64,000 nucleotides of DNA from Armatimonadota bacterium (GCA_041690135.1 JAWLHY010000008.1:64001-128000), one strand, 5' to 3'; counted from the stretch's first letter, positions 35,924 to 51,369 are shown. The notes: generated by a model not told the origin, from the sequence alone. Made by a program: numbers and translations.

Positions 35924-38355
35924 GTCCCCGCCTTCGGGTAGTGAAGGGATTCTTTTAGGGTCCGCAGCAGTTCGGCGGGGTCCGTGGGTTTGGGCAGGTA
36001 ATGGTCGAAGCCGGCAGCGCGGCCACGCTCTCGGCTTTCCGGCTCCGCGTAACCCGTAAGAGCGATCAGGACGGCATCCGCCGTCCGGGGATCGGCCCGA
36101 AGCGACTCCGTCACCCGGTACCCGTCCATCTCCGGCAAGCCGATGTCGCAGAGCACCACATGGGGTGTCCAGGTGTGAGCCAGTCCTAACCCCTCGGGCC
36201 CGGAGAACGCCAGCCGCACTTCGTAACCGGTGAGCTGCAGCAGGTCCTGGAGAGACTCCGCGGCGTCGCGGTTGTCCTCAATGATCAGCACCCGGCAGGG
36301 TCGCTCACTGGGGAGCGTGGGGGTTTGAACGGGTTCGTGTGGGATGGAGAGCTTGGCCACGGGCAGCGTCCGCAGCGGCAACCGGAGGACGAACTGGGCG
36401 CCGGGGCTGGGAGCGGGACTGGAGGCGAATACGGTGCCTCCGTGCAGTTCTATGATGCCCCTGACGAGGCTTAGGCCCAGGCCGAGCCCTCCGGTGGTGC
36501 GGGCCAACTCCTGCTCGCCCTGCACGAAGCTCTCCCAGATCCTTGGTAGCAGGTCCGCGGGAATGCCCACTCCCGTATCACGGACGACGATCCGCACCTG
36601 ATCGGTGCGATCCTCCTCCCGGCACAGTTCCACTTCGACCCGACCGCCGGCCGGGGTGAACTTGCCTGCGTTACTGAGGAGGTTGGCGACGGCCTGGCAC
36701 AAGCGGACCGGATCTCCATCCAAAAGCAAAGGCTCCCGCGGGAGGCGGACCTCCAGGATGAGGCCCTTGCCCTCGAGTTCGTCGCGGTAATCCTCCACGC
36801 ACTGGCGCACGATCTCCACCAGATTGACCGGTTCCAGTTGCAGCGAGAGCTTACCCTGGTTGATCCGGGAAACGTCGAGCAAGTCGGAGACTAACCGGGC
36901 CATATGGCGGGCCTGGCGCTGGATGATGGCCTCCTGGCGCTTCAGGAGAGGGTCGTTCGGGCCGTGGGCCTCCAGGACGGCGGCCGCGGTAACGATGGGC
37001 GCGAGAGGGTTCCGCAGCTCGTGGGCCAGCATCGCCAGGAATTCATCTTTCCGTCGGTTGGCCTCCCGCAGCTCTTCCTCAACGGCGCGCTGCGAGGTGA
37101 CATCCGTGTTGGTGCCGAACCAGCGCGTGACCTTACCCGTTTCGTCGCGGATTGGAATGGCGCGGGAAAGGAACCAGCGGTACTCACCGCTTTTGCTCCG
37201 CAACGGGAAGGTATCTTCCCAGACCTCGCCCGTGTCCCAGGAGCGCTGGATGCGCTCCACCACACGAAGCAAATGATCCGGATGGTGCACCTTCTGCCAG
37301 CCCCAGCCCTGCATCTCTTCTAGCGTGGTGCCAGTGTACTCAAACCAACGCCGGTTGTACCAGAAGATCCACCCGGTCGAGTCGGCCATCCACGCGAGCT
37401 GCGCAATGTTATCGGCCAGGGTCCGGAACCGTTCTTCGCTCTCGGACAGGGCCAGTGCGGCACGTCGTTGCTCGGTAATGTCCTTGAAGACGAGGGCGAA
37501 CCGTCCCCGTGGCGCTACGGGGGTGGCGAATACGTCGAACCAACGCTCCATCGCCTCCGAGCCGCTAACGAACCGCAGCGTTTCGCCGTCGAGGGCCACG
37601 TGGGCGTAAGTATTCACCCACTTCGGCTCCAGGTCCGGGACCAGTTCGTAGGCCGTTCTGCCCGTGGCGTCCCTCAGCCCGGTCATCTCCTCAAAGAGCG
37701 GGTTGACCTCCAGAAACCGGTAGTCCACCGGCCGGCCCTGGGCATCCTGGATTATCTCCGCAAGGCAATATCCCTCATCGATGGAGGAAAACAGGGCCCG
37801 GAATCGCTCCTCTCGCTCCCGCTGCGCCTCCTCGGCTTGCTGGGTTCCGGTCAGGTCTACCATGTTGACGACGTGCAGGATGACCCGCTCCGTGCGGTCA
37901 CGGATGGGTACGACACCGTACTTGATGAAACGCCGCTCTCCGCTGACACGGCGAATCAGGAGCACGTCGAAGTCGCGGACGTACTCCCCGCGCATTGCGC
38001 GCGCCAGCGGCCAATCCTCGAGTGGCATCGCGCTCCCGTCCGGATAACACAGCTCGAAGTACGCCACATAACGGTCCAGGTGATCGAACATCTCGGCTTC
38101 AGAAGCGAACCCGTGGATCCGCAGTCCTTCTGCATTCAGTGAGAGGATCGTGCCCTGTGGGTCCGTCAGACCAATGCCGACGGGAATACTCTCGATGACG
38201 GCTCGCAGCTTCTCCTGTTCCAAGCGCAGTGCTTCTTGCGCTTCGCGGAGTTCCTGAAGTTCGGTCAGGAGCTCACGGCCACATTCCGGCCCTGTTACGT
38301 CCGCGTCCGGGTGCGCTTCAGCGTTTGGTTCGTGATGGGGACGGGACTCCGGCAT
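35920..38355 (-). CDS. Hybrid histidine kinase: 3xPAS - HisKA - HATPase - REC
   Basis: PAS repeats, KDEFLAMLAHELRNPL, NLLSNAGKFT, CDIGLPEMDG; ATGA overlap with the next gene. Confidence 0.92.
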   Translation of the reverse strand: MPESRPHHEPNAEAHPDADVTGPECGRELLTELQELREAQEALRLEQEKLRAVIESIPVGIGLTDPQGTILSLNAEGLRIHGFASEAEMFDHLDRYVAYFELCYPDGSAMPLEDWPLARAMRGEYVRDFDVLLIRRVSGERRFIKYGVVPIRDRTERVILHVVNMVDLTGTQQAEEAQREREERFRALFSSIDEGYCLAEIIQDAQGRPVDYRFLEVNPLFEEMTGLRDATGRTAYELVPDLEPKWVNTYAHVALDGETLRFVSGSEAMERWFDVFATPVAPRGRFALVFKDITEQRRAALALSESEERFRTLADNIAQLAWMADSTGWIFWYNRRWFEYTGTTLEEMQGWGWQKVHHPDHLLRVVERIQRSWDTGEVWEDTFPLRSKSGEYRWFLSRAIPIRDETGKVTRWFGTNTDVTSQRAVEEELREANRRKDEFLAMLAHELRNPLAPIVTAAAVLEAHGPNDPLLKRQEAIIQRQARHMARLVSDLLDVSRINQGKLSLQLEPVNLVEIVRQCVEDYRDELEGKGLILEVRLPREPLLLDGDPVRLCQAVANLLSNAGKFTPAGGRVEVELCREEDRTDQVRIVVRDTGVGIPADLLPRIWESFVQGEQELARTTGGLGLGLSLVRGIIELHGGTVFASSPAPSPGAQFVLRLPLRTLPVAKLSIPHEPVQTPTLPSERPCRVLIIEDNRDAAESLQDLLQLTGYEVRLAFSGPEGLGLAHTWTPHVVLCDIGLPEMDGYRVTESLRADPRTADAVLIALTGYAEPESRERGRAAGFDHYLPKPTDPAELLRTLKESLHYPKAGT

Positions 38356-38657: not shown

Positions 38658-39950
38658 ATGGCGACGGACCGACGGCGGGTCGTAGTAACGGGCATGTCAA
38701 TCAACACCCCGCTTGGCGACGACCTGGACACCTTCTACGCGGCACTCCTCGCGGGCCGTTCGGCCATCACCCGGTGGAAGTTCTTCGAGCACGAGGGCGT
38801 CTACTCCAAGGTCGGCGGTGACCTCTCCGATTATGATTTCGGCGCGAAGCTCTCCGCACTGCGGGCGCGGCTTCCGGAAAGCCTGGGACTCCGGCTGCGG
38901 CAACTGTGCCGGAAAGCTCCGTTCTCCACGCGCCTTTCGATGCTGGCCGCGGCGGATGCCTGGCTGGATGCCGGGCTGGATGCGGGTATCGATCCGGCCC
39001 GCGGCGCGGTCCTGATTGGCGGGCACAACCTCAATACCCGGTACCTGATCGAGAACTACAACGTTTTTCGGGATGAGCCGGATTACATCGACTCGCAGGG
39101 AGCGTTGCTGACGCTGGATACGGACCATGCCGGCTCGGTGAGCGAGGTCCTGGGTTGGCACGGGGCGGCTTACACGATGGGTGGCGCATGCGCGAGCGCC
39201 AACCTCGCACTGCGGAGCGCCCTGGATGAGATCCGCTACCACGATCACGACATGGCGATGCTGGTCGGCGGCGTGCTCGATTTTACCGATATGGACCTTC
39301 ACGCGATGGCGCTCATCGGCGCCATCACCGTCCAGAGCTTCAATGACGATCCGGAGCGGGCCAGCCGTCCTTACGATGTGCGGCGGGAGGGGTTCGTCCC
39401 CTCTCACGGCACCGCCGGGCTGGTGCTGGAAGAATTGGAGCACGCGCGGGCCCGTGGCGCCCGGATCTACGCGGAAGTGCTGGGTTGCACCGCCACGGCC
39501 GACGGGTGTCACCTGCCTTCTCCTTCGACGGCGGGCCAGGCGCGGACGATCTCTCGCCTGTTGGATGAGACCAGGGTCGCGCCGGAAGAGGTCGACTTCG
39601 TCTCCGCGCACGCCACGTCCACGCCACTCGGGGATCTTTCCGAACTCCAGGCGATCAAACAGGTCTTCCAGGAGCACGCTTACCACCTCCGGATCAACGC
39701 GCCGAAGTCGATGCTGGGGCATACTTGCTGGTCGGCACCGGTGGTGGAAACGGTGGCGGCGCTCCTGCAACTGCGGGGCGGTCGGCTCCACCCCTCGATC
39801 AACATCGAGGAACTGGACCCGCAGGTCGATCTGGACATCTGCGCAGACGGACCCGTGGACCACGCGGCAAACGTAATCCTGAAGAACTCATTCGGCTTCG
39901 GCGGGCTGAACTGTTGTGCACTTTTCCGGCGGCTCGAGATGGCCGGTTAG
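38658..39950 (+). CDS. Stand-alone ketosynthase (FabF/PksF-like) with an intact Cys-His-His triad
   Basis: RRVVVTG, MGGACASAN, SRPYD.RREGFVP, AHATST, KSMLGH, NSFGFGGLN. Confidence 0.9.
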   Translation: MATDRRRVVVTGMSINTPLGDDLDTFYAALLAGRSAITRWKFFEHEGVYSKVGGDLSDYDFGAKLSALRARLPESLGLRLRQLCRKAPFSTRLSMLAAADAWLDAGLDAGIDPARGAVLIGGHNLNTRYLIENYNVFRDEPDYIDSQGALLTLDTDHAGSVSEVLGWHGAAYTMGGACASANLALRSALDEIRYHDHDMAMLVGGVLDFTDMDLHAMALIGAITVQSFNDDPERASRPYDVRREGFVPSHGTAGLVLEELEHARARGARIYAEVLGCTATADGCHLPSPSTAGQARTISRLLDETRVAPEEVDFVSAHATSTPLGDLSELQAIKQVFQEHAYHLRINAPKSMLGHTCWSAPVVETVAALLQLRGGRLHPSINIEELDPQVDLDICADGPVDHAANVILKNSFGFGGLNCCALFRRLEMAG

Positions 39951-39966
39951 CGATTTCGGGGGCTCG

Positions 39967-40713
39967 ATGGTTTTCTTTGTCACGGGGGGATCGCGCGGGA
40001 TCGGATCCGAGATCGTCCTGCAGGCAGTGGCCGCCGGTCACGACGTGGCTTTTACCTACGTCCGGGACCAGGCAGCGGCGGAAGATGTGCTCCGGCGGGC
40101 GCGCGAGGTGCGCCCGGCCGGCCGGTGTGCCGCCTATCAACTGGACGTGGCCGATGCGGCCCAGGTGGAGCGGGTGGGCGACCGCGTGCTGGAAGACTTC
40201 GACACCGTGGACGCGGTGGTGAACTGCGCGGGGATCCGGCGCGATAACCTGGCGGTGTCGATGGCGGACGAGGAATGGGCGGAAGTCCTGGCGGCCAACC
40301 TTACGGGGCCGTTCTACGTCTGTCGCCAGTTCCTGCCGACGATGCTGGCGAACCGTTTCGGGCGGATCGTGAACATCTCCTCGGTCCAGTACAACGGGGG
40401 CACGGGGCAGGCCAACTACGCCGCGAGCAAGGCAGGTCTCCACGGCCTCACCCTGACACTGGCGAAGGAATACGGCCGGAAAGGGATCACGGCGAACGTC
40501 ATAGTGCCGGGGTTCTTCGAGACGGATATGACCCGGGATACGCTGCCCGACGCTCTCCCGGAACACTGGCGGAAGCACTGCCCGATGCCGGGAGGGCGGT
40601 TCGGGCGCCTCTCGGAGCTGGCGGGGACCGTGCTCTTCCTCACCTCGGAAGCCGGCGGCTTCATCAATGGCGAGATCCTGCACGTCACCGGCGGCCTCAA
40701 CCACACCCTCTGA
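39967..40713 (+). CDS. FabG-like 3-oxoacyl-ACP reductase
   Basis: TGGSRGIG, NCAGI.RD, GQANYAASKAG, PGFFETDMT. Confidence 0.9.
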   Translation: MVFFVTGGSRGIGSEIVLQAVAAGHDVAFTYVRDQAAAEDVLRRAREVRPAGRCAAYQLDVADAAQVERVGDRVLEDFDTVDAVVNCAGIRRDNLAVSMADEEWAEVLAANLTGPFYVCRQFLPTMLANRFGRIVNISSVQYNGGTGQANYAASKAGLHGLTLTLAKEYGRKGITANVIVPGFFETDMTRDTLPDALPEHWRKHCPMPGGRFGRLSELAGTVLFLTSEAGGFINGEILHVTGGLNHTL

Positions 40714-40726
40714 CCGGGAACCACTG

Positions 40727-41971
40727 ATGAGTTATCCTCCGCGCCCGGATCGCGTCGGTATCGAGAAGATCGCGGCCTACCCGTGCACGCTATCGCTGGA
40801 TCTCCGGCTCCTGGCGGAGAAGCGTGGGGACCCGCCGGACTATCCTCGGAACGAGCTGAACGTGGAGACACGCTCGGTAAACCCGCCCTGGGAAGACCCG
40901 GTCACCATGGCCGTGAATGCCGCACAGACACTGCTCGGCGCGGGGAATCCGGAAGAAATCGGTCTGGTGCTCGTCGGGACGGAGTCGTCCCCGGATTTCG
41001 GCAAACCGATCTCCTCCTACGTCCAGCGGTTCTGCGAGATCCCCGCGAATTGCCGGAACCTGGAGACCAAGCACGCGTGCTACAGCGGCACCGGAGCCTT
41101 GATGCTGGCCGCGCACTGGATAGCGTCCGGCCTGCACCGGGGGAAGAAGGCGCTGGTCATCACCACCGATCAGAGCCGGGTGCACCTGGAGAAGCGATGG
41201 GAGTACGTGCTCGGCGCCGGAGCGGTGGCGATGCTCGTGAGCGACCAGCCGGACGTGCTGGAACTGGAACTGGAGCACAACGGTTATTGGAGCGCCGAGC
41301 TGGCCGACACCTACCGTCCCACGTCCACCGCGGAGGTGGGGCACGCCGAAACCAGCCTCTTCGGATACCTCGAAGCGCTGGAGAACACGTATGAGGCCTA
41401 CCTCGCTCAAGCGGGACCGGTGGAGTACACCTCCCATTTCAAGAGACACATCTATCACGTCCCCTTTGGTGGGATGACCCTTCGCGCCCACCGGGCTCTC
41501 CTCCGGCGCGAGGGCATCACCCGGGCTTCCGAAGTGCGGGCCAGCTTCGAGGAGCGGGTGCGGCCGTCGCTGCATTACACCGCGCGGATGGGCGGCACGT
41601 ACGGCTCGGCCACTTTCCTCGCGTTGATGAGCCTGATCGACTCCAGCGACGATCTGGGGCCCGGCGATCGCATCAGTCTCTTCTCCTACGGGTCCGGCTC
41701 CTGCGCGGAGTTCTACAGCGCGCGCATCGGACCACGCGCGCGGGCGGTGGTGGGTGCGGCGGGGCTCGCGCGGGCGCTGGAGGAGCGGGAAACCCTCACC
41801 GTGGAGGCCTACGAGCAGATCGAGCGTGAACGCTTCGCGGCGATCGATCGGTGCGACTACACGCCGGACCTGGGCCTGCCCGGAGGACTCTATGCACGGA
41901 AGTATGCCGGATGCCGGCGGCTGGTGCTGGAAAGTGTCACCGGGTATCAGCGCAACTACGGGTGGAGCTGA
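40727..41971 (+). CDS. HMG-ACP synthase (PksG-like beta-branching enzyme)
   Basis: EDPVTMAVNAA, GTESSPDFGK, ETKHACYSGT, YHVPFGGM, FSYGSGSCAEFYS. Confidence 0.92.
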   Translation: MSYPPRPDRVGIEKIAAYPCTLSLDLRLLAEKRGDPPDYPRNELNVETRSVNPPWEDPVTMAVNAAQTLLGAGNPEEIGLVLVGTESSPDFGKPISSYVQRFCEIPANCRNLETKHACYSGTGALMLAAHWIASGLHRGKKALVITTDQSRVHLEKRWEYVLGAGAVAMLVSDQPDVLELELEHNGYWSAELADTYRPTSTAEVGHAETSLFGYLEALENTYEAYLAQAGPVEYTSHFKRHIYHVPFGGMTLRAHRALLRREGITRASEVRASFEERVRPSLHYTARMGGTYGSATFLALMSLIDSSDDLGPGDRISLFSYGSGSCAEFYSARIGPRARAVVGAAGLARALEERETLTVEAYEQIERERFAAIDRCDYTPDLGLPGGLYARKYAGCRRLVLESVTGYQRNYGWS

Positions 41972-41975
41972 ACGG

Positions 41976-42752
41976 ATGCGGCTCCACTGCGAAACCCGTG
42001 AGACATCTGTATGGCGTGTGCAGCTTGAGCCAAACGCCGAGGGACGCACGCTCCTGAACCCGGCCGGGCTGCGAGACCTCGAAGCCGTGCTGACGCGCCT
42101 GGAGGCGGCTGAGCACTGCCGCGTGCTGCTGCTGGAGGGCGTGCCGGGTGAGTTCTGCTCCGGGATGGACCTGCAAGCGGCCCTGGAGCGCCGGGAAGAG
42201 GTTGCCGATGATCTCCGGCGGTATGCGGGGTGCCTGCGGAGGCTGCGGGAGCTTGCCTGCGTAGTGGTAGCGGTGGCGGATGGTCGCGTGATGGGGGGCG
42301 GGGTCGGTCTCGCCGCCGTCGCCGACCTAGTGTTGGCAACGCCCCGGGCCTCGTTCGCCCTGCCGGAGCTGGCGCTGGGGCTGATTCCCTCCCTTGTGCT
42401 GGCGGTGCTCTCCGAGCGGATGCCGCCGCAAAAGGCGCGCCGCCTGGTGTTGACCGGACAGCCGATCTCAGCGGAAAAGGCCGAAGCATTTGGTTTGGTG
42501 GACCAGTTGGTGGAAATCGAGGCGCTGCCGCAAACCGTTTCGGGCCTGCTGCGCCAGCTCCTGCGAGAGGATCCGCGATCGGTCGCACGGCTGAAGCGAT
42601 TTTCCCGGGGATTGGAAGGTCGGCCACTGTCCGCGGCGCTCGAGGCCGGTTGGCGGCAAACGGCCGGCGACCTGGCGGACCCGGCCATCCGCGCCGGCCT
42701 CCAGGGGTATCTGGAGGGGGAGCTGCCCCCCTGGTTTGAGCGGCGCGCATGA
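41976..42752 (+). CDS. Crotonase ECH1 (PksH-like HMG-ACP dehydratase)
   Basis: LEG.PGEFCSGMDL, GGGVGL, FALPELALGLIP; follows the HMG synthase. Confidence 0.85.
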   Translation: MRLHCETRETSVWRVQLEPNAEGRTLLNPAGLRDLEAVLTRLEAAEHCRVLLLEGVPGEFCSGMDLQAALERREEVADDLRRYAGCLRRLRELACVVVAVADGRVMGGGVGLAAVADLVLATPRASFALPELALGLIPSLVLAVLSERMPPQKARRLVLTGQPISAEKAEAFGLVDQLVEIEALPQTVSGLLRQLLREDPRSVARLKRFSRGLEGRPLSAALEAGWRQTAGDLADPAIRAGLQGYLEGELPPWFERRA

Positions 42753-43501
42753 ATCCGATTCTCCTCGAAATAGACGCCGATGGGGTGGCGGTGCTCCACA
42801 TGCGCGACGTGGCGGGGCGAAACGCGTTCAGCCGGCCCTTCGTCGAGGCGCTGGTCGAAGGTTTGGGCGGACTCGCGGACGAGCGCGTCAAAGTCGCCGT
42901 GCTCCGGGGGCTGGACGACGTCTTCTGCGCTGGCGCAGACCGCGAATTGCTGCTCGAGCTGGCGGAGGGCCGCCTTAGCCCTTACGACCTGCTGCTCACG
43001 CGCACGCTGCTAGAGGTGCCGGTTCCGACGATCGCCGCCATGGCGGGCCACGCGGTGGGCGGCGGACTGGTCCTCGGGCTTGCCTGCGATATGGTGGTCC
43101 TGGCGCGCGAGAGCCGCTACGGCTGCAACTTCATGGATCTCGGCTTCACGCCGGGGATGGGCGCTACGGGCCTGCTCCAGGCCGCGGTCGGGGAATACCT
43201 GGCGGCGGAGATGCTTTACAGTGCCCGATATGTGCGGGGCTCGGAGTTGGAAGGGCGGTCCGGAGTCAACGCCGTGCTCCCCAAGGCGCAGGTGTTGGAA
43301 CGCGCGCTGTCCCTGGCCGCGCGGATCGCCGGGATGGAGCGATATGCCCTCCGTATGCTCAAAGAAGCCCTCGTCACTCCCCGTCGTCGCGCGTTCGAGG
43401 AAGCGCGCGCGGTGGAGACGCGGATGCATGAAACCTGTTTCGCCCGTCCCGAGGTCCGGCAGCGGATCCGGGAGAATTATCCGGACCTGGAACGAAACTG
43501 A
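42749..43501 (+). CDS. Crotonase ECH2 (PksI-like methylglutaconyl-ACP decarboxylase)
   Basis: NAFS, AMAGHAVGGG, NFMDLGFTPGMGAT, MHETCF (conserved His). Confidence 0.88.
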   Translation: MNPILLEIDADGVAVLHMRDVAGRNAFSRPFVEALVEGLGGLADERVKVAVLRGLDDVFCAGADRELLLELAEGRLSPYDLLLTRTLLEVPVPTIAAMAGHAVGGGLVLGLACDMVVLARESRYGCNFMDLGFTPGMGATGLLQAAVGEYLAAEMLYSARYVRGSELEGRSGVNAVLPKAQVLERALSLAARIAGMERYALRMLKEALVTPRRRAFEEARAVETRMHETCFARPEVRQRIRENYPDLERN

Positions 43502-44238
43502 TGGTGCGCGACTTCCAAGAACGAGCGGTGTACGTGGCCGGGTGCGGGTGCGGGCCCGGCCCGGCGGTGGCGCTAGCTTTTTCCCGCGCGGGAGCGCGAG
43601 TCTACTTCGCGCCCGGCTGCAGGGCGGTTTCCGAGAGGGCACAACGGGACAACCTTGCCATAACAGTCGGCCGGTATGTGGTCGTATTCGAATCCGGTAA
43701 CCCGGAGGCGGAAGTGGCGGAGTTTGCTGCTTCCGCAAGATCCGCAGGGTCGCCGGATGATGCCGCACAGATCGACATCTTTGTCTGGTGTGCATGCTCC
43801 ACGCCGCCCAGTGATATGCAGCCAGGCGGTTTCGAACGGCTGCAAGAAGCGGTGGGAGAAGACAGTTGGCCGTTCGTCGCGCGGCTCCACGCTCTTCGGA
43901 AGGCAAATGGCCGTTACCCCCGCTATGCGGTTGCGCTGGCCGCACCGCTTGAAGGTAATCCTGACGGCGCCGCGACACTGGCGACGGAGGTGTTGGAAAC
44001 GCTCGTCCGGTATCACGCCACACACCTCCGCCCGGAGGGCGTGCGGGTCAACGCCGTGCGCGCGGCCGGTGGAGAGACCTCCGTCTCCCCACGTGAAGTT
44101 GCCGGTACGGTCCTCGCCCTCTGCAGCGGCCTCCTGGATGCAATGTCCGGCCAGGTCCTCCGGGTGGGGTCGGCATCACCTGCCGGGATGAGTAGCTGGC
44201 TGGCTGACCCGTCATCCGAGAAAGGAGCTTCCGGATGA
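43501..44238 (+). CDS. Degenerate SDR, paralog of the neighbouring enoyl reductases (probable pseudo-enzyme)
   Basis: Shares SWPFV, GRYPRYAVAL, LETLVRY, EGVRVNAVRA and LCSG.LD...GQVL.V, but has an altered Gly loop and lacks catalytic Tyr/Lys. Confidence 0.7.
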   Translation: MVRDFQERAVYVAGCGCGPGPAVALAFSRAGARVYFAPGCRAVSERAQRDNLAITVGRYVVVFESGNPEAEVAEFAASARSAGSPDDAAQIDIFVWCACSTPPSDMQPGGFERLQEAVGEDSWPFVARLHALRKANGRYPRYAVALAAPLEGNPDGAATLATEVLETLVRYHATHLRPEGVRVNAVRAAGGETSVSPREVAGTVLALCSGLLDAMSGQVLRVGSASPAGMSSWLADPSSEKGASG

Positions 44239-45083
44239 ACCCGAACGATTTCCGGGGCCGGGGAGTACTGGTTACGGGGGGAACCCAGGGGATCGGCCTG
44301 GCGGTGGGCCTCGCTTTCGGGCGGCTCGGCGCCGACGTCTTCCTGACCCATCGCTGGGGCTCCGCGGACGAAGCGGAACTCCGGGAGCGGTTCCGCGAGG
44401 TAGGCGCGGCGCCTCCGTCCATCCTGGAGGCGGACGTTTCCCAGGAAGAGGATACCTGCGCCGTGATGGAGCAGATCCGCGAGCACTGCGGCCGTCTCGA
44501 CGTGCTGGTGAGCAACGTCTCCTTCGCCCGGATTGCCGCCGAGCCGGCCAGCCTGCGCTGGCGGGACCTGACCCGCGGCTTACGGTATAGCGCCTGGCCG
44601 TTGGTGGAGTACCTGCAGGCGTGTCGCCGTGAGTTGGGATGCTACCCTCGCTACGCCGTGGCTCTCTCGTCCCGCGGGCCGGACATGTTCCTTCCCGGCT
44701 ACGACCTGGTAGCGGCCAGTAAGACGGTGCTGGAGATGCTCTGCCGGCAGCTGGCGACGGAGTTGCGAGAAGAGGGAGTCCGGGTGAATGCCCTCCGCGC
44801 TAACCCGGTCGATACGCGCTCCCTGGCTGCGACGTTCGGTCCCGAGTTTGCGGCGTTCTGCCGAAAGTATTACGGCGACGACTACCTGGTCCTGCCGGAA
44901 GAAGTTGCCGACGCGGTGGTGGCGCTCTGCAGTGGCTGGATGGACGGGGTCTCCGGCGAGGTGCTGTTCGTCGATCGCGGCTGTAGCTTTTCAGACAACG
45001 TGGCCCGGCTTTACACGGAGCGAGCCCAATTGGGCCTGGAGGTGGAAGCCGATTTCTCGGAACCTATCGATACGAAAGGATGA
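44235..45083 (+). CDS. FabL/FabI-like enoyl-ACP reductase (SDR)
   Basis: TGGTQGIG; Y-X6-K motif YDLVAASK; VDRG. Confidence 0.78.
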   Translation: MNPNDFRGRGVLVTGGTQGIGLAVGLAFGRLGADVFLTHRWGSADEAELRERFREVGAAPPSILEADVSQEEDTCAVMEQIREHCGRLDVLVSNVSFARIAAEPASLRWRDLTRGLRYSAWPLVEYLQACRRELGCYPRYAVALSSRGPDMFLPGYDLVAASKTVLEMLCRQLATELREEGVRVNALRANPVDTRSLAATFGPEFAAFCRKYYGDDYLVLPEEVADAVVALCSGWMDGVSGEVLFVDRGCSFSDNVARLYTERAQLGLEVEADFSEPIDTKG

Positions 45084-45355
45084 AGATGATCACACGGGAA
45101 GCGGTCTTTGAAGTCGTAAAGCGGAACCTGGGGGAAGTGGTGGAGGACCTGGAAGGGGTGGAGATCGATCCCAACCAGAGCATGGTCGAACTGGGCGCCA
45201 ACAGCCTCGACATCGTCGAGGTTGTCTCCTGCAGCATGCGCGAGTTGAAGATCAAAGTGCCCCGCGCGGAACTGTCGAAGCTCAAGAACATCGGGGAACT
45301 GGTGGATCTCCTCTACCGAGTAGCCCGCGAAAAGGAAGATCAGGGCGCCGCCTGA
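45080..45355 (+). CDS. Acyl carrier protein, AcpK-like
   Basis: LGANSLD phosphopantetheine site; KVPRAELSKLKNIGELVDLLY. Confidence 0.92.
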   Translation: MKMITREAVFEVVKRNLGEVVEDLEGVEIDPNQSMVELGANSLDIVEVVSCSMRELKIKVPRAELSKLKNIGELVDLLYRVAREKEDQGAA

Positions 45356-45374
45356 CCGGGCGGATACCGGCACC

Positions 45375-46898
45375 ATGCGCATTGCAGTGATCGGGGGAGG
45401 GGCGGCCGGGCTCACGGCAGCCTGGCGCCTGTCCCGGAAACACGAGGTGTCGCTTTACGAAGCGAACTCCTGGCTGGGCGGGCACGCGCGAACCGTGGAG
45501 GTTCCGGGACCGGGCAGGACTGTCCCTGTGGATATGGGGTTCCTCGTATTCCACGAGTGGATCTACACGAACTTTTCCGCGCTGCTCGCACATCTCGGCG
45601 TGGCTGCGGTGCCGACCCCGCCTCAGACCACTGCCGTGTCGTTCCCGGGTGGCGCGTGGAAAACGGGACTCGCGACGCCGTTCTGGAGCACCGTAAGCGA
45701 GGAAGCGGATCGTTTCCACCGGATGCTGCCCTCAGTTGTGGCCGATCCGGTCCGGTATGCCGGGTTGAAACTGGGCGACTTCCTGGACGGGAACGGGTTC
45801 TCGGAAGATTTCAAGTACAAGTGCGTGTGTCCGGTCGGCGGCTCTCGCTTCGTGACCCGGCGGGGCGTGCTGGAACTGTCGGTGCTGGAGTTTGCGGCCG
45901 GCTTTGGTCCGGTGGCGCTCTACTCCATCATCCAACCGACCTTCTGGCGGACCGTCGGGGGCGGGATGCGGGAATACATCGACCGCCTGGCAGGGGAGAT
46001 CACCGGGGAAGTTCACCCTTCCACACCCGTCCGGTCCGTCCAGCGGTCCCGCGGCGGCATCACCGTGACCCTGGCCGGTGGCCAGGTGGAGACGTTCGAT
46101 CAGGTGGTGGTGGCGACCGGCGCGGATGTGGCCCTCCGGTTGCTGGCCGATCCCAGCCCCGAGGAAAAGCTCCTGTTGGGTTCTTCCTACCAGGAGACGC
46201 GGGTGGTGCTCCATACGGACCCTTCCGTGATGCCGGACGACCGGAGCCTCTGGGCGGCAGACACCTACGTCACGCACGAGACCGCGCCCCCCTACCAGCG
46301 GGGCTGGGTGAGTTACTATCTGCCGGACACACAGCCCTGGGTGGATTTCGACATCTTCGTGACCGTGGGTGCTCCGGAAGGGCTGATCGCCCCCGACCGG
46401 ATCCTGGAGGAGCACCGGTGGCGCCACCTGGAGGCGGACAGTGTGCAGTTGCTGCGCTCCATGGAATTGCACCGGATCCAGGGGAAGCAGCGGACCTGGT
46501 TCTGCGGAGAGTACGCGGGAATGTACGGCGGTCACGAGTCCAGCGTGGTGACCGGCCTCGCCGTGGCCGCCGCGTTGGGCGCCGACTACCCCTTCACGGA
46601 AAATGCCGCGGCCTACCGGGTGTTCCTGGACACGGCCGTCAACCATATGCGCGTGCTGGACGGTCCGCGTCCGGCGGCCGATGCCACCTGGTGGCCGCCG
46701 GTGCTGGGTGAGGTGAACGCCCGGATGATCCGGGAAATCGCACGGGAAGAAGTGCGCGGGGTACTCCGGCAAAAGCTGCCCAGTCCCCTGGCGGCCCTAC
46801 TGGACCGGCTGCCCTGGATCGAGGATACCCTGGTCCGGCAGATCGCAGGGCGGATCTCGCTGCTGGAAGAGGCGGTCCGGCGCCAGCCGGAGGCCTGA
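45375..46898 (+). CDS. FAD-dependent oxidoreductase (COG2907 / UfaD-like acyl-chain desaturase or isomerase)
   Basis: IAVIGGGAAG, LGGHARTV, VPVDMGFLVF...Y.NF, VVLHTD.SVMP, IQG...TWFCG, GGHES. Confidence 0.75.
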   Translation: MRIAVIGGGAAGLTAAWRLSRKHEVSLYEANSWLGGHARTVEVPGPGRTVPVDMGFLVFHEWIYTNFSALLAHLGVAAVPTPPQTTAVSFPGGAWKTGLATPFWSTVSEEADRFHRMLPSVVADPVRYAGLKLGDFLDGNGFSEDFKYKCVCPVGGSRFVTRRGVLELSVLEFAAGFGPVALYSIIQPTFWRTVGGGMREYIDRLAGEITGEVHPSTPVRSVQRSRGGITVTLAGGQVETFDQVVVATGADVALRLLADPSPEEKLLLGSSYQETRVVLHTDPSVMPDDRSLWAADTYVTHETAPPYQRGWVSYYLPDTQPWVDFDIFVTVGAPEGLIAPDRILEEHRWRHLEADSVQLLRSMELHRIQGKQRTWFCGEYAGMYGGHESSVVTGLAVAAALGADYPFTENAAAYRVFLDTAVNHMRVLDGPRPAADATWWPPVLGEVNARMIREIAREEVRGVLRQKLPSPLAALLDRLPWIEDTLVRQIAGRISLLEEAVRRQPEA

Positions 46899-46964
46899 CG
46901 CGAGGGGCCGGGACGGGTCCGGAGCGTGCCGTTTGAGCTGGGTATGAGAGGAGCATGCGAGAGT

Positions 46965-48224
46965 ATGAGCGGGGCGATGGAAGAACAGCTTTCGGTAACC
47001 GATTTCTACCTGGGCTCCGAGACGGATCCCCTTGCTCCACCGCCGGAGTTCGCGGAGTGGCTGCGAGCAACGGAGCCAGCCTGGAGCCTCTATGAGCGAT
47101 CGTTGTGCGCGGCGCCTACCGCGCGGACGCTTCTGGAAGTGCGAGGGCAACCCCATCCGGTCATCAACCTGACCTCGTACAACTACCTGGGGCTTTCGTG
47201 CCATCCGGAGGTGATAGCCGCGGCCCGCGAGACACTGGAAAGCTGGGGCACCGGCGCTTGTGGCTCGGCGATCCTCTCCGGGATGACCGTGCTTCACCGG
47301 GAGTTGGAACGCCAGATCGCCGGCTTGCTGGGCCGGGAGACCACCCTTTTGTTCAGCAGCGGCTTCGGCGGGGCATTGGGGCTCACTTCCGGGTTCCTCC
47401 GCCGGGGGGACGTCGCGGTGGTGGATGAACGGGTGCATATTTCCTTGATGGATGGCGTCCGACTTTCCGGGGCGCAGACGGCGACGTTCACTCACAACGA
47501 CCCGGCCGCTCTCGACCAGGTGCTGGCACGTTACCCGAACCGGCGCCGGGTGGTAGTCGTGGAAGGTCTTTATTCGATGGATGGCGATCTTCCCGATCTG
47601 CCGGCTCTGTTGGAAGTAGCCGAGGCGCATGGAGTGGGGCTGGTGATTGATGAAGCCCATTCCTTCCTCGCGTTTGGCGAGACGGGAGGTGGCATCACCG
47701 AACAGGCCGGCGTGCAGGACCGGGTCCGGTTGTTCTACGGAACCTTCTCCAAGGCGCTCGGCGGGATTGGTGGCTTCGTATCCGGTCCGGCGGATGCCCT
47801 GGGCTACATGCGCCTCTTTTCGCACCCCTATGCCTTCTCATGCGCCCTTCCCCCCCTGACGGTAGCCGGCTTGCTGGCAGGGCTCCGGGTGGCCACGCGC
47901 GATCGGACCCTCCGGGCGCGGTTATTGGAGAACGGCGAGTATTTCCGGAGGGGTCTGCAATCGATCGGTATCGACACCGGTCTTTCCACCACCCACGTGG
48001 TGCCGATCGTCCTCGGGCGGCGCCGGGACCTGCTCTACACGGCGGGGCACCAACTGGTAGAGCGCGGGTTGTTCCTCGCGCCGGTGGACTATCCCGCGGT
48101 GCCGGAAGACCAGGTGCGGTTCCGCGCCTCCGTGACGGCGATGCATACCCGGGAGGACCTGGACGAAGCGCTGCAAATCATCGAGGACGTGATCGCCCGG
48201 CCGCTACGCCGGGGCGTGGGCTAA
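46965..48224 (+). CDS. PLP-dependent alpha-oxoamine synthase, serine-palmitoyltransferase-like
   Basis: NLTSYNYLGL, HISLMDG, EGLYSMDGD, DEAHS, GTFSKALG, YPAVP..RFR. Confidence 0.85.
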   Translation: MSGAMEEQLSVTDFYLGSETDPLAPPPEFAEWLRATEPAWSLYERSLCAAPTARTLLEVRGQPHPVINLTSYNYLGLSCHPEVIAAARETLESWGTGACGSAILSGMTVLHRELERQIAGLLGRETTLLFSSGFGGALGLTSGFLRRGDVAVVDERVHISLMDGVRLSGAQTATFTHNDPAALDQVLARYPNRRRVVVVEGLYSMDGDLPDLPALLEVAEAHGVGLVIDEAHSFLAFGETGGGITEQAGVQDRVRLFYGTFSKALGGIGGFVSGPADALGYMRLFSHPYAFSCALPPLTVAGLLAGLRVATRDRTLRARLLENGEYFRRGLQSIGIDTGLSTTHVVPIVLGRRRDLLYTAGHQLVERGLFLAPVDYPAVPEDQVRFRASVTAMHTREDLDEALQIIEDVIARPLRRGVG

Positions 48225-48248
48225 CCGAAGAGTTGTGAGAGGACGAAC

Positions 48249-48782
48249 ATGGACCCGGAAGAACTGCGAGCCCTGATCCGTACGGCCCGACGAAAGCCGC
48301 TGTTCGATCCTACGGTCGCCGGGGATCCTCGCGACCTGGGGCGAGAGCAGTTGGTCCGGATTTTGCCTCACCGGGGTACGATGCTGCTGCTGGACGGCAT
48401 CGACCGGGTGGACCTCGAAGGCGGTCGTATCGTCGGCCGCCGCCGCGTGGCGGCGGCCGATCCGGTGTTCGGCGACCATTTCCCGGGCTACCCGGTCTAT
48501 CCGGGGGTCCTCCAGGTGGAGATGATGGGGCAACTGGGTCTCTGCCTGGCCGTTTTCACGGATCGGGGCGCCGTTGAACTGCCGGAGGAGGGGAGAGCCT
48601 TGCAGGTGCGCCTCCTCCGGATCCACCATGCGCTCTTTGTGCAGGAGGTCCGTCCGGATGACCGCCTGACAGTGCTGGCGAAGGTGCTGCACGAGGACGG
48701 AACCACGATGATCTGTACGGGCCAGTTGCTTCGGGACGGGGAAGTGTTAAGTATCGCGGTGCTCGAGGCTTTCCGGGCCTAG
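48249..48782 (+). CDS. FabZ-like beta-hydroxyacyl-ACP dehydratase
   Basis: LPHR, HFPGYPVYPGVLQVEMMGQ, EVRPDD. Confidence 0.88.
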   Translation: MDPEELRALIRTARRKPLFDPTVAGDPRDLGREQLVRILPHRGTMLLLDGIDRVDLEGGRIVGRRRVAAADPVFGDHFPGYPVYPGVLQVEMMGQLGLCLAVFTDRGAVELPEEGRALQVRLLRIHHALFVQEVRPDDRLTVLAKVLHEDGTTMICTGQLLRDGEVLSIAVLEAFRA

Positions 48783-48803
48783 TCGGGAAAGAGGGGAGAG
48801 GGC

Positions 48804-49610
48804 GTGTTCGACTTACGGGGGAAGACAGTCCTGCTTACCGGCGGGACCATGGGGATCGGCCTCGCCACCGCGCTCAAGTTCGGAAGCGTGGGGGCGCGCA
48901 CGATCCTCACCTGCCGGTTCGGCTCGGCGGATGAGGACGAGGTCCGCAGCCAGTTCGCCGCAATAGATGCTCCCATGCCGCTGATCGTTCAGGCGGACGT
49001 GGCGAACGAGGAGGACACGGTTGCGCTGATGGACGAGATCGCGCGGGAGCACGACGGGGTCGATATCTTCATCTCCAACGTCTCGTTCGCGCTCCGGATC
49101 TCCGGGCTGGAGGACTACGATAAACGCGCTTTACTCCGGGGCATTGAGTACACGTCATGGCCCCTCTGGGCTTATACGCGGGCTCTCCGGGAGCGGTTCG
49201 GACGGTATCCGCGCTATGTCGTCGGGCTTTCCAGCGACGGCCCCGACTCCTACTACCTGAACTACGACTTCGTGGCGATGTCCAAGTCGCTTCTGGAAAC
49301 CCTCTGCCGTTACATGAATTACCGGCTCTTCGATGAAGGGGTGCGGGTAAACGTGGTCCGCTCGCGGATGATCGTGACTGAATCGATGCTCGCCACCTTT
49401 GGCGAGGATTTCGCGGAGTACCTGCGCCGCCTGAAGGTGGAGGAACTGAGCATCAGCCCCGATGACGTGGCCGGGGTGGTAGTCTCGCTCTGCAGTGGCT
49501 GGATGGACGCGGTCGCCGGCCAGGTGATCCGGGTCGACCGCGGCACGGCGTTCTTCGACAACACCATGGGGTTCTTCGAGCGGATCGAGCAAAGGCATGA
49601 GCCGCTCTAA
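48804..49610 (+). CDS. Second FabL/FabI-like enoyl-ACP reductase (SDR)
   Basis: TGGTMGIG; Y-X6-K motif YDFVAMSK; collinear with 44235-45083. Confidence 0.78.
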   Translation: MFDLRGKTVLLTGGTMGIGLATALKFGSVGARTILTCRFGSADEDEVRSQFAAIDAPMPLIVQADVANEEDTVALMDEIAREHDGVDIFISNVSFALRISGLEDYDKRALLRGIEYTSWPLWAYTRALRERFGRYPRYVVGLSSDGPDSYYLNYDFVAMSKSLLETLCRYMNYRLFDEGVRVNVVRSRMIVTESMLATFGEDFAEYLRRLKVEELSISPDDVAGVVVSLCSGWMDAVAGQVIRVDRGTAFFDNTMGFFERIEQRHEPL

Positions 49611-50481
49611 GGTAGCGCCCCGGGAAAGCCGGTACTTCCATGCCAGGCATGTGCTGGTGACCGGCGGCTCCAGCGGGATCGGGCTGGCGGTCGCGGAAGG
49701 CATTGCCGCGCGGGGCGGTCGGGTCACGCTGATCGCCCGTGATCCAAGCCGGCTCGAGGAAGCGCGCCACCGCATCGAGAGCCGCTACCCGGCATCCGTG
49801 GTGGGTCTTCTGGAGTTGGACGTCGCCGAGGAAGAGGCGGTCCATTCAACGGTGCCCGCCTACCTCAACGAGCATCCGGCGTGGGGATTGGTCAACAGTG
49901 CCGGCATCACCTTGCCGGGACGGGCGCTGGAATTGGGCTCGGAAGACTTCCGCTCCCAGATGCAGGTGAATTACTTCGGGACGGTCGCGATGTGCCGGAC
50001 CGTGGTGCCGGACCTCATCGCCCGGGGCGAAGGCCACGTGGTGAACGTCGGTTCCCTGCTGTCGGTGATGTCCATCTACGGGCACTCCGCGTACTCGGCG
50101 AGCAAGTTCGCGGTTTATGCCTTCACCGACGCGCTCCGGGCGGAAATGACCCGGAACGGGGTACGGGTCAGCCTGCTGCTGCCGGGGGACACGGATACTC
50201 CGCAACACCAGCATGAGCGCCGGTACCTGCCGCCGGAAACCCGCGCAATTGCCGGCTCCGTGAAACTGCTGTCGGCGGAGCAGGTGGCGGCCGAGCTATT
50301 GCGGGGAATGGCGCGAGGGGCCTTCGAGATCATCCCCGGCACCGAGGCCCGCGCCGCAGTTCTAGCCTACCGCTGGTTTCCGGACCTGGCCCGCTGGGTG
50401 TGGTCCCGCGCCGAACGCCGGGCGATGAGCATTTCCGGGGAGTCCGCTACGGACCTTCCCACCGAACAGAAGGGTCGGTGA
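49597..50481 (+). CDS. 3-ketodihydrosphingosine reductase (KDSR/Tsc10)-like SDR
   Basis: HVLVTGGSSGIG, VTLIAR, VNYFG, AYSASKFA, and the KDSR-like PGDTDTP....E....PPETRAI. Confidence 0.75.
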   Translation: MSRSKVAPRESRYFHARHVLVTGGSSGIGLAVAEGIAARGGRVTLIARDPSRLEEARHRIESRYPASVVGLLELDVAEEEAVHSTVPAYLNEHPAWGLVNSAGITLPGRALELGSEDFRSQMQVNYFGTVAMCRTVVPDLIARGEGHVVNVGSLLSVMSIYGHSAYSASKFAVYAFTDALRAEMTRNGVRVSLLLPGDTDTPQHQHERRYLPPETRAIAGSVKLLSAEQVAAELLRGMARGAFEIIPGTEARAAVLAYRWFPDLARWVWSRAERRAMSISGESATDLPTEQKGR

Positions 50482-50577: not shown

Positions 50578-51369
50578 TTACTCCAGGTAACGGCGGACCC
50601 GGTTCTTCCAACCGGTGAGCCACCGCTTCTCACCGCGGGCGGGGGGAGAGTTCTCCACGCGGCGCGTGAGGACGGACTCCGCGCTGGCGGCGAACTCCTT
50701 TACCGGCCCCGGTCCCTTCCCCTTCATGCCCGCCAGGACCTGGAGGAGGCCCCAGCCCTGGCCCTGGTAGCGCTCGGTCTCCTTGATGCCTTCGCCTTTG
50801 AAGTTGACGTAGTCGATCAGGGCGAAGGTACCGGCGCTGCTGCCCAGCATCCGCTGGAACTGGGCTCTAACGTTCTCCCGCTGCGCCGCGGGCGCGGCCT
50901 CCAGCATCTTGGGGAGGCTCGCTTCCATGCGCTGGACGATAAAGCGGCTCTGGAGCGAGAGGGTGCGAGAGAGGAGATTCCGCAGCTCCTTCATGCGGGG
51001 GCTCTGGAAGTCCCGCTCGAACTCCGCCTTCGTGGACCACGGGCAGGGCCTATCGAGGGCCCATTCCGGGACCGAAGCACCCTCCTCCGCCAGGAACCGG
51101 GCGAGTCGCGGGAAGGCCTCGTCGAAGGGTCCACTGTAGCCTTTCGGATACCAGATAAAGTGACCGATGCCGAGGGAAGCAAACTGCTCGCCGGCATTCC
51201 AGGAGGTCAGGCCGTCGATCCGTCCACCGCACTCGTTCTGCCAGATTCGCTTCCCAATGGTGGTCAGTTGCTGGTCCGTCAATTCAACAGCGCAGGCGGC
51301 ACTCGTGCCGGCGATGCACGATGCCAGTAAGAGCACGCGAAGGATATGGAGAATAACTGTAGGGCTCAT
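50578..51369 (-). CDS. Exported conserved hypothetical protein
   Basis: Signal peptide; IWQNECGG..DGLTSWN.GE.FASLGIGHFIWYP; ALIDYVNFKGEG. Confidence 0.8.
   Translation of the reverse strand: MSPTVILHILRVLLLASCIAGTSAACAVELTDQQLTTIGKRIWQNECGGRIDGLTSWNAGEQFASLGIGHFIWYPKGYSGPFDEAFPRLARFLAEEGASVPEWALDRPCPWSTKAEFERDFQSPRMKELRNLLSRTLSLQSRFIVQRMEASLPKMLEAAPAAQRENVRAQFQRMLGSSAGTFALIDYVNFKGEGIKETERYQGQGWGLLQVLAGMKGKGPGPVKEFAASAESVLTRRVENSPPARGEKRWLTGWKNRVRRYLE

Follow-up and report, generated by a model that had tools for sequence, protein, structure and literature searches.

A candidate polyketide synthase-independent type II pathway to methyl-branched amino lipids, encoded by a conserved operon in an Armatimonadota genome

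Beta-branching cassettes, such as AcpK/PksF/G/H/I of bacillaene biosynthesis, are known from the literature solely in an accessory role to modular polyketide synthases (PKSs), which raises the question of what such a cassette does at a locus where it forms part of a discrete fatty acid-type synthase. The locus considered here is an operon of 13 genes on the plus strand, at positions 38658-50481 of a 64,000-nucleotide stretch of DNA from an Armatimonadota bacterium (GCA_041690135.1 JAWLHY010000008.1:64001-128000). This whole stretch is referred to as the window, and coordinates are counted from its first letter. Our analysis favors, with somewhat better than even confidence, a self-contained and PKS-independent type II system that makes a methyl-branched acyl chain on its own acyl carrier protein (ACP) and releases it as an amino lipid. 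Most likely, a beta-methyl and probably iso-terminal acyl-ACP is formed, and the released product is an amino ketone or an amino alcohol.

A preliminary description of the window had listed 13 tightly packed, co-oriented genes in this interval, and both the genes and their order were confirmed by open reading frame (ORF) listing, Pfam and NCBIfam (Table 1). Given the likely starts adopted in the table for the FabG, HMGS and ECH1 genes, the intergenic distances range from -14 to +27 bp and are consistent with an operon. A scan for promoters and terminators returned 0 promoter-like and 4 terminator-like sites, fewer than in shuffled sequences. The window belongs to contig C8 of a 9.1 Mb assembly that consists of 25 contigs and is 97% complete. 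All organism-named relatives of its RecA protein (10 among the 120 matches listed, 73-88% identical) come from Armatimonadota.

Table 1. Genes of the 13-gene operon in window coordinates.
Gene product	Coordinates	ORF open from	Strand	Basis of assignment
Ketosynthase (KS), lineage of the PksF cassette model	38658..39950		+	Pfam ketoacyl-synt N and C domains
3-oxoacyl-ACP reductase, FabG type	39967..40713	39916	+	TIGR01830 239 bits, adh_short
3-hydroxy-3-methylglutaryl (HMG) synthase (HMGS), predicted ACP-dependent PKS-cassette type	40727..41971	40667	+	comparison with solved structures
ECH1, cassette dehydratase	41976..42752	41754	+	ECH_1 125 bits
ECH2, cassette decarboxylase	42749..43501		+	NF005496 279 bits, over the cut-off of 215
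Degenerate enoyl reductase paralogue, probable pseudo-enzyme	43501..44238		+	weak adh_short_C2 match only
Enoyl-ACP reductase 1 (ER1), FabL/FabI-like short-chain dehydrogenase/reductase (SDR)	44235..45083		+	adh_short_C2 133 bits, Tyr-x6-Lys
ACP, putative donor (AcpK-model) type, the only ACP of the operon	45080..45355		+	NF005502
Flavoprotein of the monoamine oxidase (MAO) superfamily, LkcE/'predicted NAD/FAD-binding protein' clade	45375..46898		+	LkcE 210 bits
Alpha-oxoamine synthase (AOS), dependent on pyridoxal 5'-phosphate (PLP)	46926..48224		+	Aminotran_1_2 170 bits
FabZ-like 3-hydroxyacyl-ACP dehydratase	48249..48782		+	FabA domain 64.6 bits
Enoyl-ACP reductase 2 (ER2)	48804..49610		+	49% identical to ER1, Tyr-x6-Lys present
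Classical SDR, candidate amino-ketone reductase	49597..50481		+	adh_short 152 bits

The preliminary description had proposed that the cassette works without a modular PKS, none having been seen near the operon. The neighborhood is as it stated, since scanning of the window finds neither a PKS nor a nonribosomal peptide synthetase (NRPS) gene, and the proposal holds at the level of the genome as well. Both PF00109 and a tblastn search with the operon KS find the same number of KS genes in the assembly, namely four, all of them stand-alone, and only the operon's own KS gene is located on contig C8. Dependence on a distant modular PKS, which had been named as a ground for giving up the proposal, thus finds no footing in this 97% complete assembly. 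From precedent one would expect the cassette to serve a modular trans-acyltransferase (trans-AT) PKS encoded elsewhere, since characterized cassettes, for example BonN/BonF-I of bongkrekic acid, work on a PKS according to passages of PMC12560621. We nevertheless regard this arrangement as extremely improbable, because 9.1 Mb of assembled sequence hold no modular KS and just one single-module NRPS-like gene on another contig, and because the cluster is accompanied by its own fatty acid synthase (FAS) parts at 45 related loci.

The counterparts of a type II FAS, that is KS, ketoreductase (KR), dehydratase (DH), enoyl reductase (ER) and ACP, are all present in the operon as discrete proteins, and the acyltransferase (AT) is available only as FabD: PF00698 (Acyl_transf_1) has a single match in the genome, a FabD-type enzyme whose gene is located on contig C1, at a distance of about 10 kb from genes for FabF and FabG that form a pair. 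The earlier remark that no acyltransferase was seen is locally true, yet this is not a feature of the pathway, since 30 related loci carry a FabD-like malonyl transferase gene (identified by all-against-all clustering), usually between the AOS and FabZ genes. Its absence from the window is therefore best seen as a loss made good by FabD. Among the remaining genes searched for, AMP-binding domains have 14 matches in the genome, none of them on contig C8, and the Condensation domain has a single match, on contig C1. The latter belongs to a separate small NRPS-like cluster (G000:C1:986000-997000), in which five AMP-binding genes in a row are followed by an open frame of 1379 residues, and it is this frame that contains the Condensation domain, along with the sixth AMP-binding match of the cluster.

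The assignment of the cassette proteins draws in part on the NCBIfam models for the KS, ECH2 and ACP, which we take to derive from the pksX genes of Bacillus subtilis and each of which exceeds its cut-off in exactly one of 14 control genomes. The KS of the operon scores 353 bits on NF005490 (cut-off 445), whereas the genome's three housekeeping KS genes reach 244-260 bits on this model. Its motifs GGACASAN, HATST and GHTC make up an intact Cys-His-His triad, and the cysteine is kept in 38 of the 40 family members, the remaining two rows being cut off. In a KS0 the cysteine is replaced by serine. As judged by its triad, the operon KS differs from the non-elongating KS0 that passages of PMC12560621 describe as the cassette KS, and it is predicted to be competent for condensation.

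Comparison of the HMGS with solved structures gives the highest scores for CurD (277 bits) and PksG (235 bits), with the HMG-CoA synthases of Enterococcus/Staphylococcus type at about 150 bits. The glutamate (in TES), cysteine (in ACYSG) and histidine (in HVPFGG) align with those of CurD, so that the enzyme is assigned by sequence to the ACP-dependent PKS-cassette type. The top NCBIfam match of ECH1 is NF005498, at 124.8 bits under a cut-off of 250; the gene occupies the expected position at 40 of 48 related loci. The ACP reaches 74.9 bits on NF005502 (cut-off 79), and its motif GANSLDIVEVVS is conserved over 37 aligned relatives. Tryptophan after the ACP serine, a flag by which the acceptor ACPs of PKS cassettes are recognized according to passages of PMC12560621, is absent from the window protein and from all 37 aligned relatives.

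Around the cassette, the reductases and the dehydratase complete the discrete FAS-like setting that the preliminary description had envisaged, with a KS predicted to be condensation-competent, a KR, a DH, ERs and one ACP. The FabZ-like protein scores 73-76 bits on FabZ models, under their cut-offs, and the top NCBIfam match of ER1, FabL, is likewise under its cut-off at 96.8 bits. The third ER paralogue has no NCBIfam match and is 33% identical to ER1. In place of the Rossmann motif TGGTxGIG of its relatives it has AGCGCGPGP, and it is one of two exceptions to the Tyr-x6-Lys pair kept in 64 of 66 family members. Since the relatives encode an active reductase at this position of the cluster, ER2 may have taken over that role in the window.

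Is this gene set a peculiarity of one genome? A search with the HMGS against one genome per species yielded 48 loci, many of them cut by contig ends. At 45 of these the HMGS is 42-62% identical to that of the window, and these loci come from metagenome-assembled genomes (MAGs) of at least eight phyla. The MAG labels include Myxococcota (Nannocystaceae, Polyangiaceae, Haliangiales, Kofleriaceae and Sandaracinaceae), Phycisphaeraceae, Nitrospinota, Eremiobacterota/Xenobia, Burkholderiales, Cellvibrionaceae, Methylomicrobium, Bdellovibrionales, Bacteroidetes and others. The other three loci, from spirochaetes, are distant (HMGS 30-32% identical), and the window queries find just a FabG-like gene beside one of them. 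By tblastn of the 13 window proteins over the 48 loci, FabG was found at 44, KS, ECH1 and ECH2 at 40 each, FabZ at 39, ACP at 37 and AOS at 35, together with one or two ER genes at most loci. The set of KS, FabG, HMGS, ECH1, ECH2, two ERs, ACP and FabZ recurs at 45 of 48 HMGS loci, most of which have an AOS and an AT of their own as well, and on account of this recurrence the gene arrangement is more than chance. In the open-access literature we found no description of an HMGS cassette that is combined with both an oxoamine synthase and a FAS of type II; a Streptococcus mutans paper that mentions an 'HMGS cassette' (PMC5116633) concerns PKS clusters.

The distribution of the HMGS among the 41 sampled genomes of the window's phylum is sparse, with two positive genomes including that of the window. 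A quick tree with SH-aLRT support was built from 51 rows, representing all HMGS matches longer than 300 residues and leaving out L049, L051-L053, L055 and L056, which are the window itself or not HMGS loci. In this tree the nearest partner of the window is L008, a Nitrospinota locus (support 94), and the two stand beside Nannocystaceae, with the window away from its family relative, and it falls into no starred clade. As far as can be read from these sequences, the distribution fits lateral spread. The HMGS of the family relative, genome G006, is identical to that of an Actinomycetes-labeled locus (the two loci compared being L050 and L016), and one of these two taxonomic labels is probably wrong.

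The release step is attributed to the AOS, whose gene is separated by 27 bp from the preceding flavoprotein gene and by 24 bp from the FabZ gene that follows. The motifs GTFSKALGG, with the PLP lysine, and DEAHS place it in the fold type I superfamily, and within this superfamily it falls under every NCBIfam cut-off (bioF 310 against 426, Spt 291 against 500, Kbl 283 against 460 bits). On the three Spt models it scores 291, 271 and 228 bits against cut-offs of 500, 640 and 670, and its solved relatives are near-tied (Spt 224, BioF/Kbl 221 and Kbl 214 bits). Elsewhere the genome encodes a canonical bioA-bioF-bioD operon (bioF 490 bits, cut-off 426) and a tdh-kbl pair (kbl 514 bits, cut-off 460), and the products of these bioF and kbl genes score 297-356 bits on the two stronger Spt models, no less than the operon AOS. 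The earlier label of serine palmitoyltransferase (SPT) therefore finds no support in the sequence and is to be taken as interpretation. A role as the BioF of the biotin pathway was rejected in view of the canonical bioA-bioF-bioD operon. By its sequence the AOS is classed as a third, specialized oxoamine synthase, for which the name Spt would be suggested by context only.

As the usual partner of the cassette, the AOS fared better: by a hand count it is present in 19 of the 21 non-spirochaete loci that have full flanks. One may still ask whether it is a releasing enzyme or a mere frequent neighbor, the operon being a supply module that provides branched acyl-ACP to other acceptors such as membrane lipids, lipid A or some pathway encoded elsewhere. 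Two loci, L003 and L009, hold the whole module and have no AOS within 10 kb, and L037 and L043 have a thioester-reductase-like gene, through which the chain could leave as an aldehyde or an alcohol. The AOS of the family, however, is of two sequence types (50-60% and 31-37% identical to that of the window) found in two cluster positions, and its presence in 19 of 21 loci argues for selective retention; in the window its gene sits inside the operon. We consider the supply function distinctly unlikely and retain the AOS as the probable releasing enzyme.

What would follow the release of an amino ketone is suggested by the genes next to the AOS. Epimerase-fold reductases adjoin it at seven loci, and SDRs at L007, L015 and L043. 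As ketoreductases are frequent beside the AOS in relatives, reduction of the amino ketone is a reasonable step. In the window the candidate enzyme is the last SDR, a type found at four of 48 loci with the window query (relatives in L043, L054 and L007 are 33%, 35% and 30% identical). The preliminary description had called it similar to 3-ketodihydrosphingosine reductase (KDSR), a label not borne out by comparison: the protein reaches 107 bits on the KDSR model NF049977 (cut-off 400), and among solved structures yeast TSC10 ranks ninth at 80.6 bits, with clavaldehyde dehydrogenase ahead of it at 97 bits. It is better named a generic classical SDR.

Several related loci carry additional genes around the cluster. 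In a Phycisphaeraceae MAG a gene for an AurF-like di-iron N-oxygenase is located between FabZ and KS (L007:6716-7807), which suggests that the product amine is oxidized there. A membrane fatty-acid desaturase gene and the thioester-reductase-like gene follow the ACP gene in Methylomicrobium (L043:13907-16067) and Cellvibrionaceae (L037:13882-16055), and MacB-type permease genes occur in L021, L022 and L025. Polyangiaceae versions have genes for a phosphopantetheinyl transferase and a radical S-adenosylmethionine (SAM) protein just upstream of the AOS (L013:2289-5154). The reductase genes beside the AOS and the desaturase, N-oxygenase and permease genes of relatives fit an amine-bearing lipid with a reduced ketone.

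The gene reported in the preliminary description as an FAD oxidoreductase is indeed present, and it can be named more exactly as a flavoprotein of the LkcE clade. Its only solved relative is LkcE (210 bits, E 4e-61, over residues 2-416), the next structure scoring 27 bits, and it has an extra tail of about 90 residues compared with LkcE. LkcE itself is the amide oxidase/Mannich cyclase of lankacidin biosynthesis (passages of PMC6162330; PDB 6f7l, 6f32), and residues E64, Y182 and R326 show strict conservation among cyclases of this type according to the same source. With the chain-to-paper numbering offset of +4, checked on Y168, Y182 and R326, these residues align with L57, a glutamate and a tyrosine of the window protein. 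By these residues the flavoprotein is predicted to share the clade of LkcE and not its reaction.

Most database relatives of the flavoprotein at 30-40% identity have 410-475 residues and are named 'predicted NAD/FAD-binding protein', whereas 13 closer homologues (42-68% identical, with P0002 at 68%) have 505-516 residues, the same length as the window protein. The former group presumably also includes UfaD (RSP1091). This enzyme is a fatty-acyl desaturase acting on a methyl-branched chain, with an NAD/FAD-binding domain as in phytoene desaturases (passages of PMC7380195). A likeness to the 10-methylene reductase BfaA was considered and dropped, as the available passages of PMC5660069 give no family assignment for it. 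On the metagenome contig of L054 a flavoprotein 64% identical to that of the window is encoded directly after FabZ-KS-FabG-HMGS-ECH1-ECH2 and is followed by the relative of the last SDR mentioned above. With two cases so far, the flavoprotein and the SDR thus recur as a pair that accompanies this cluster family. In L054 a gene of the GCN5-related N-acetyltransferase (GNAT) family (Acetyltransf_6/FemAB-like) adjoins this pair on the opposite strand (L054:5614-10382). Considered as a candidate ceramide synthase, this GNAT protein has no relative in the window genome; PF13480 has four matches there, all located elsewhere than in the operon, and the family is non-specific, with matches in E. coli and B. 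subtilis too.

The flavoprotein also bears on a different kind of product. A short branched acyl-ACP (C5-C10) could be converted to an amino ketone and further, via the SDR and the flavoprotein, to a small diffusible molecule such as a signal of the alpha-hydroxyketone type, a pyrazine, or a cyclic imine or pyrrole. This would agree with a KS lineage that handles malonyl and acetyl units, with a MAO-family flavoprotein related to LkcE, which oxidizes a C-N bond, with the hybrid sensor kinases that flank the operon, and with a weak match of the AOS to the autoinducer-synthase model PRK07179 (194 bits against a cut-off of 428). The kinases, however, are not conserved beside the cluster at any of the 48 loci, and a CqsS-like kinase as a family feature was rejected on this ground. 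The full KR/DH/ER set with two reductases exceeds the needs of a C5 product, and the membrane desaturase and MacB-type permease genes of relatives lean toward a lipid over a small signal. A small diffusible product is therefore judged unlikely, and the amino lipid remains the preferred reading.

For the amino lipid we infer the following order of reactions from the gene content and catalytic motifs, and the chain length, how many branches it has, the amino acid used and the end product are likewise our reading of these. The housekeeping FabD is assumed to load malonate on the operon ACP, this copy of the cluster having lost its own AT. The KS may both decarboxylate malonyl-ACP to acetyl-ACP and perform the condensation to beta-ketoacyl-ACP. 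HMGS would then add acetate to the beta-keto intermediate, ECH1 would dehydrate and ECH2 decarboxylate the adduct, and one of the ERs would saturate it to give the beta-methyl branch, with FabG, FabZ and the other ER carrying out ordinary elongation cycles. With Ser, Ala or Gly as the small amino acid, the AOS would carry out a condensation on the acyl-ACP and release an alpha-amino ketone, a step with a precedent in proteobacterial Spt, which prefers an acyl chain on a dedicated ACP according to passages of PMC11324152. In this copy of the cluster, an amino alcohol is probably formed from the ketone by the last SDR, after which the LkcE-clade flavoprotein might oxidize either the amine or a bond adjacent to the methyl branch.

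How often the cassette acts on one chain is the remaining choice. We judge most likely a single branch per chain, introduced on acetoacetyl-ACP, which would give an isovaleryl start and an iso-terminal chain. This needs no chain-length counting, and it would explain why a complete portable set is found in proteobacterial hosts that presumably lack iso-fatty acids. The preliminary description had also put forward a more elaborate scheme, with branching alternating with full reduction cycles so that a methyl is placed on every fourth carbon, and the AOS releasing an isoprenoid-like chain made from acetate alone. A single KS with an intact triad, one ACP and a complete reduction set could in principle iterate together with the cassette, and the two separately conserved ERs could serve branched and unbranched enoyl intermediates. 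Strict alternation, however, would require a counting of chain length that the sequences do not offer, the two-reductase set is equally required for a single branch, and no relative has extra KS or ACP genes that would hint at programmed cycles. Nothing found favors the alternating scheme over the single branch, and we consider it very unlikely.

Several observations weigh against the pathway as proposed with a single branch and an amino lipid product. The lone ACP, putatively a donor, lacks the Trp flag, so that the choice of keto substrate by HMGS is unexplained, and ECH1, FabZ, the ACP, the KS and both ERs all score under NCBIfam cut-offs. The AOS carries no specific Spt signal, and the two loci without a nearby AOS indicate that the branched acyl-ACP may have other fates. 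Joint occurrence of the flavoprotein and the last SDR is limited to just one other locus found, L054, and their place in the pathway is a guess. Loading of the operon ACP by FabD is an assumption, and the product, the chain length and the amino-acid substrate are not readable from sequence.

Comparison with known systems shows which parts of the operon have precedents. The HMGS cassettes of trans-AT and some cis-AT PKSs contain the same five protein types (donor ACP, a putative assignment for the operon protein, KS0/KS, HMGS, ECH1 and ECH2), and the operon HMGS is nearest to CurD and PksG, with the ACP and KS nearest to cassette models. In contrast to these systems, the operon has neither a PKS nor an acceptor ACP with the Trp flag, its KS keeps the catalytic cysteine and so is predicted to elongate, and its cassette genes are surrounded by those for KR, DH, ER and AOS. 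The ceramide pathway of Caulobacter includes Spt, a dedicated ACP (AcpR), an acyl-ACP synthetase (AasR), CerR and CerS (passages of PMC11324152). Both systems have an oxoamine synthase encoded beside a dedicated ACP, with a reductase nearby in the window and in many relatives. They differ in that the operon acyl-ACP would be made de novo by a private FAS and the cassette, whereas that of Caulobacter is loaded by AasR; moreover, no AMP-binding or CerS-like gene is linked to the operon, and its AOS is below the Spt cut-offs. The operon is therefore most aptly regarded as known parts in a new combination, which lacks defining features of both the PKS cassettes and the bacterial ceramide pathway.

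Two further systems bear on the number of branches. Myxococcus has a leucine-independent route to isovaleryl-CoA that uses MvaS, LiuC and AibA/B. It resembles the single-branch scheme, since a condensation of HMG type, dehydration and decarboxylation lead to a C5 iso unit from acetate, and differs from it in using CoA esters and unrelated decarboxylase subunits, the intermediates of the proposed operon pathway being ACP-bound and its enzymes of PKS-cassette type. In mycobacteria, Pks12 makes the isoprenoid-like polymethyl chain of mycoketides without isoprenoid precursors. This is relevant to the alternating scheme, with the difference that the branches derive from methylmalonate on a type I PKS instead of HMGS branching in a type II system.

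The cassette KS is predicted to be capable of elongation, and the whole unit is spread over at least eight phyla, mostly in uncultured representatives. If the proposed pathway is true, it would provide bacteria with a leucine- and SAM-independent route to methyl branches in lipid chains, and branched lipids of an amino or sphingoid-like kind would form a new class. Such a finding matters for how branched lipid biomarkers are interpreted, for bacterial sphingolipid biology and for the engineering of branched chains with small discrete enzymes. The alternating scheme, if true, would yield a terpenoid-looking sphingoid base and would add a third route to the two that lead to isoprenoid-like lipids, namely the isoprenoid pathways and the methylmalonate PKSs.

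Convergent with the operon is a 263-residue ORF on the minus strand (50578-51369) with a hydrophobic, signal-peptide-like start, for which neither Pfam nor NCBIfam gives a match and a search of 50 loci gives no relative. Directly upstream and divergent from the operon are two paralogous tandem genes for hybrid histidine kinases, overlapping by 4 bp on the minus strand (33218-38355), and a further hybrid kinase is encoded at 51366-53372.

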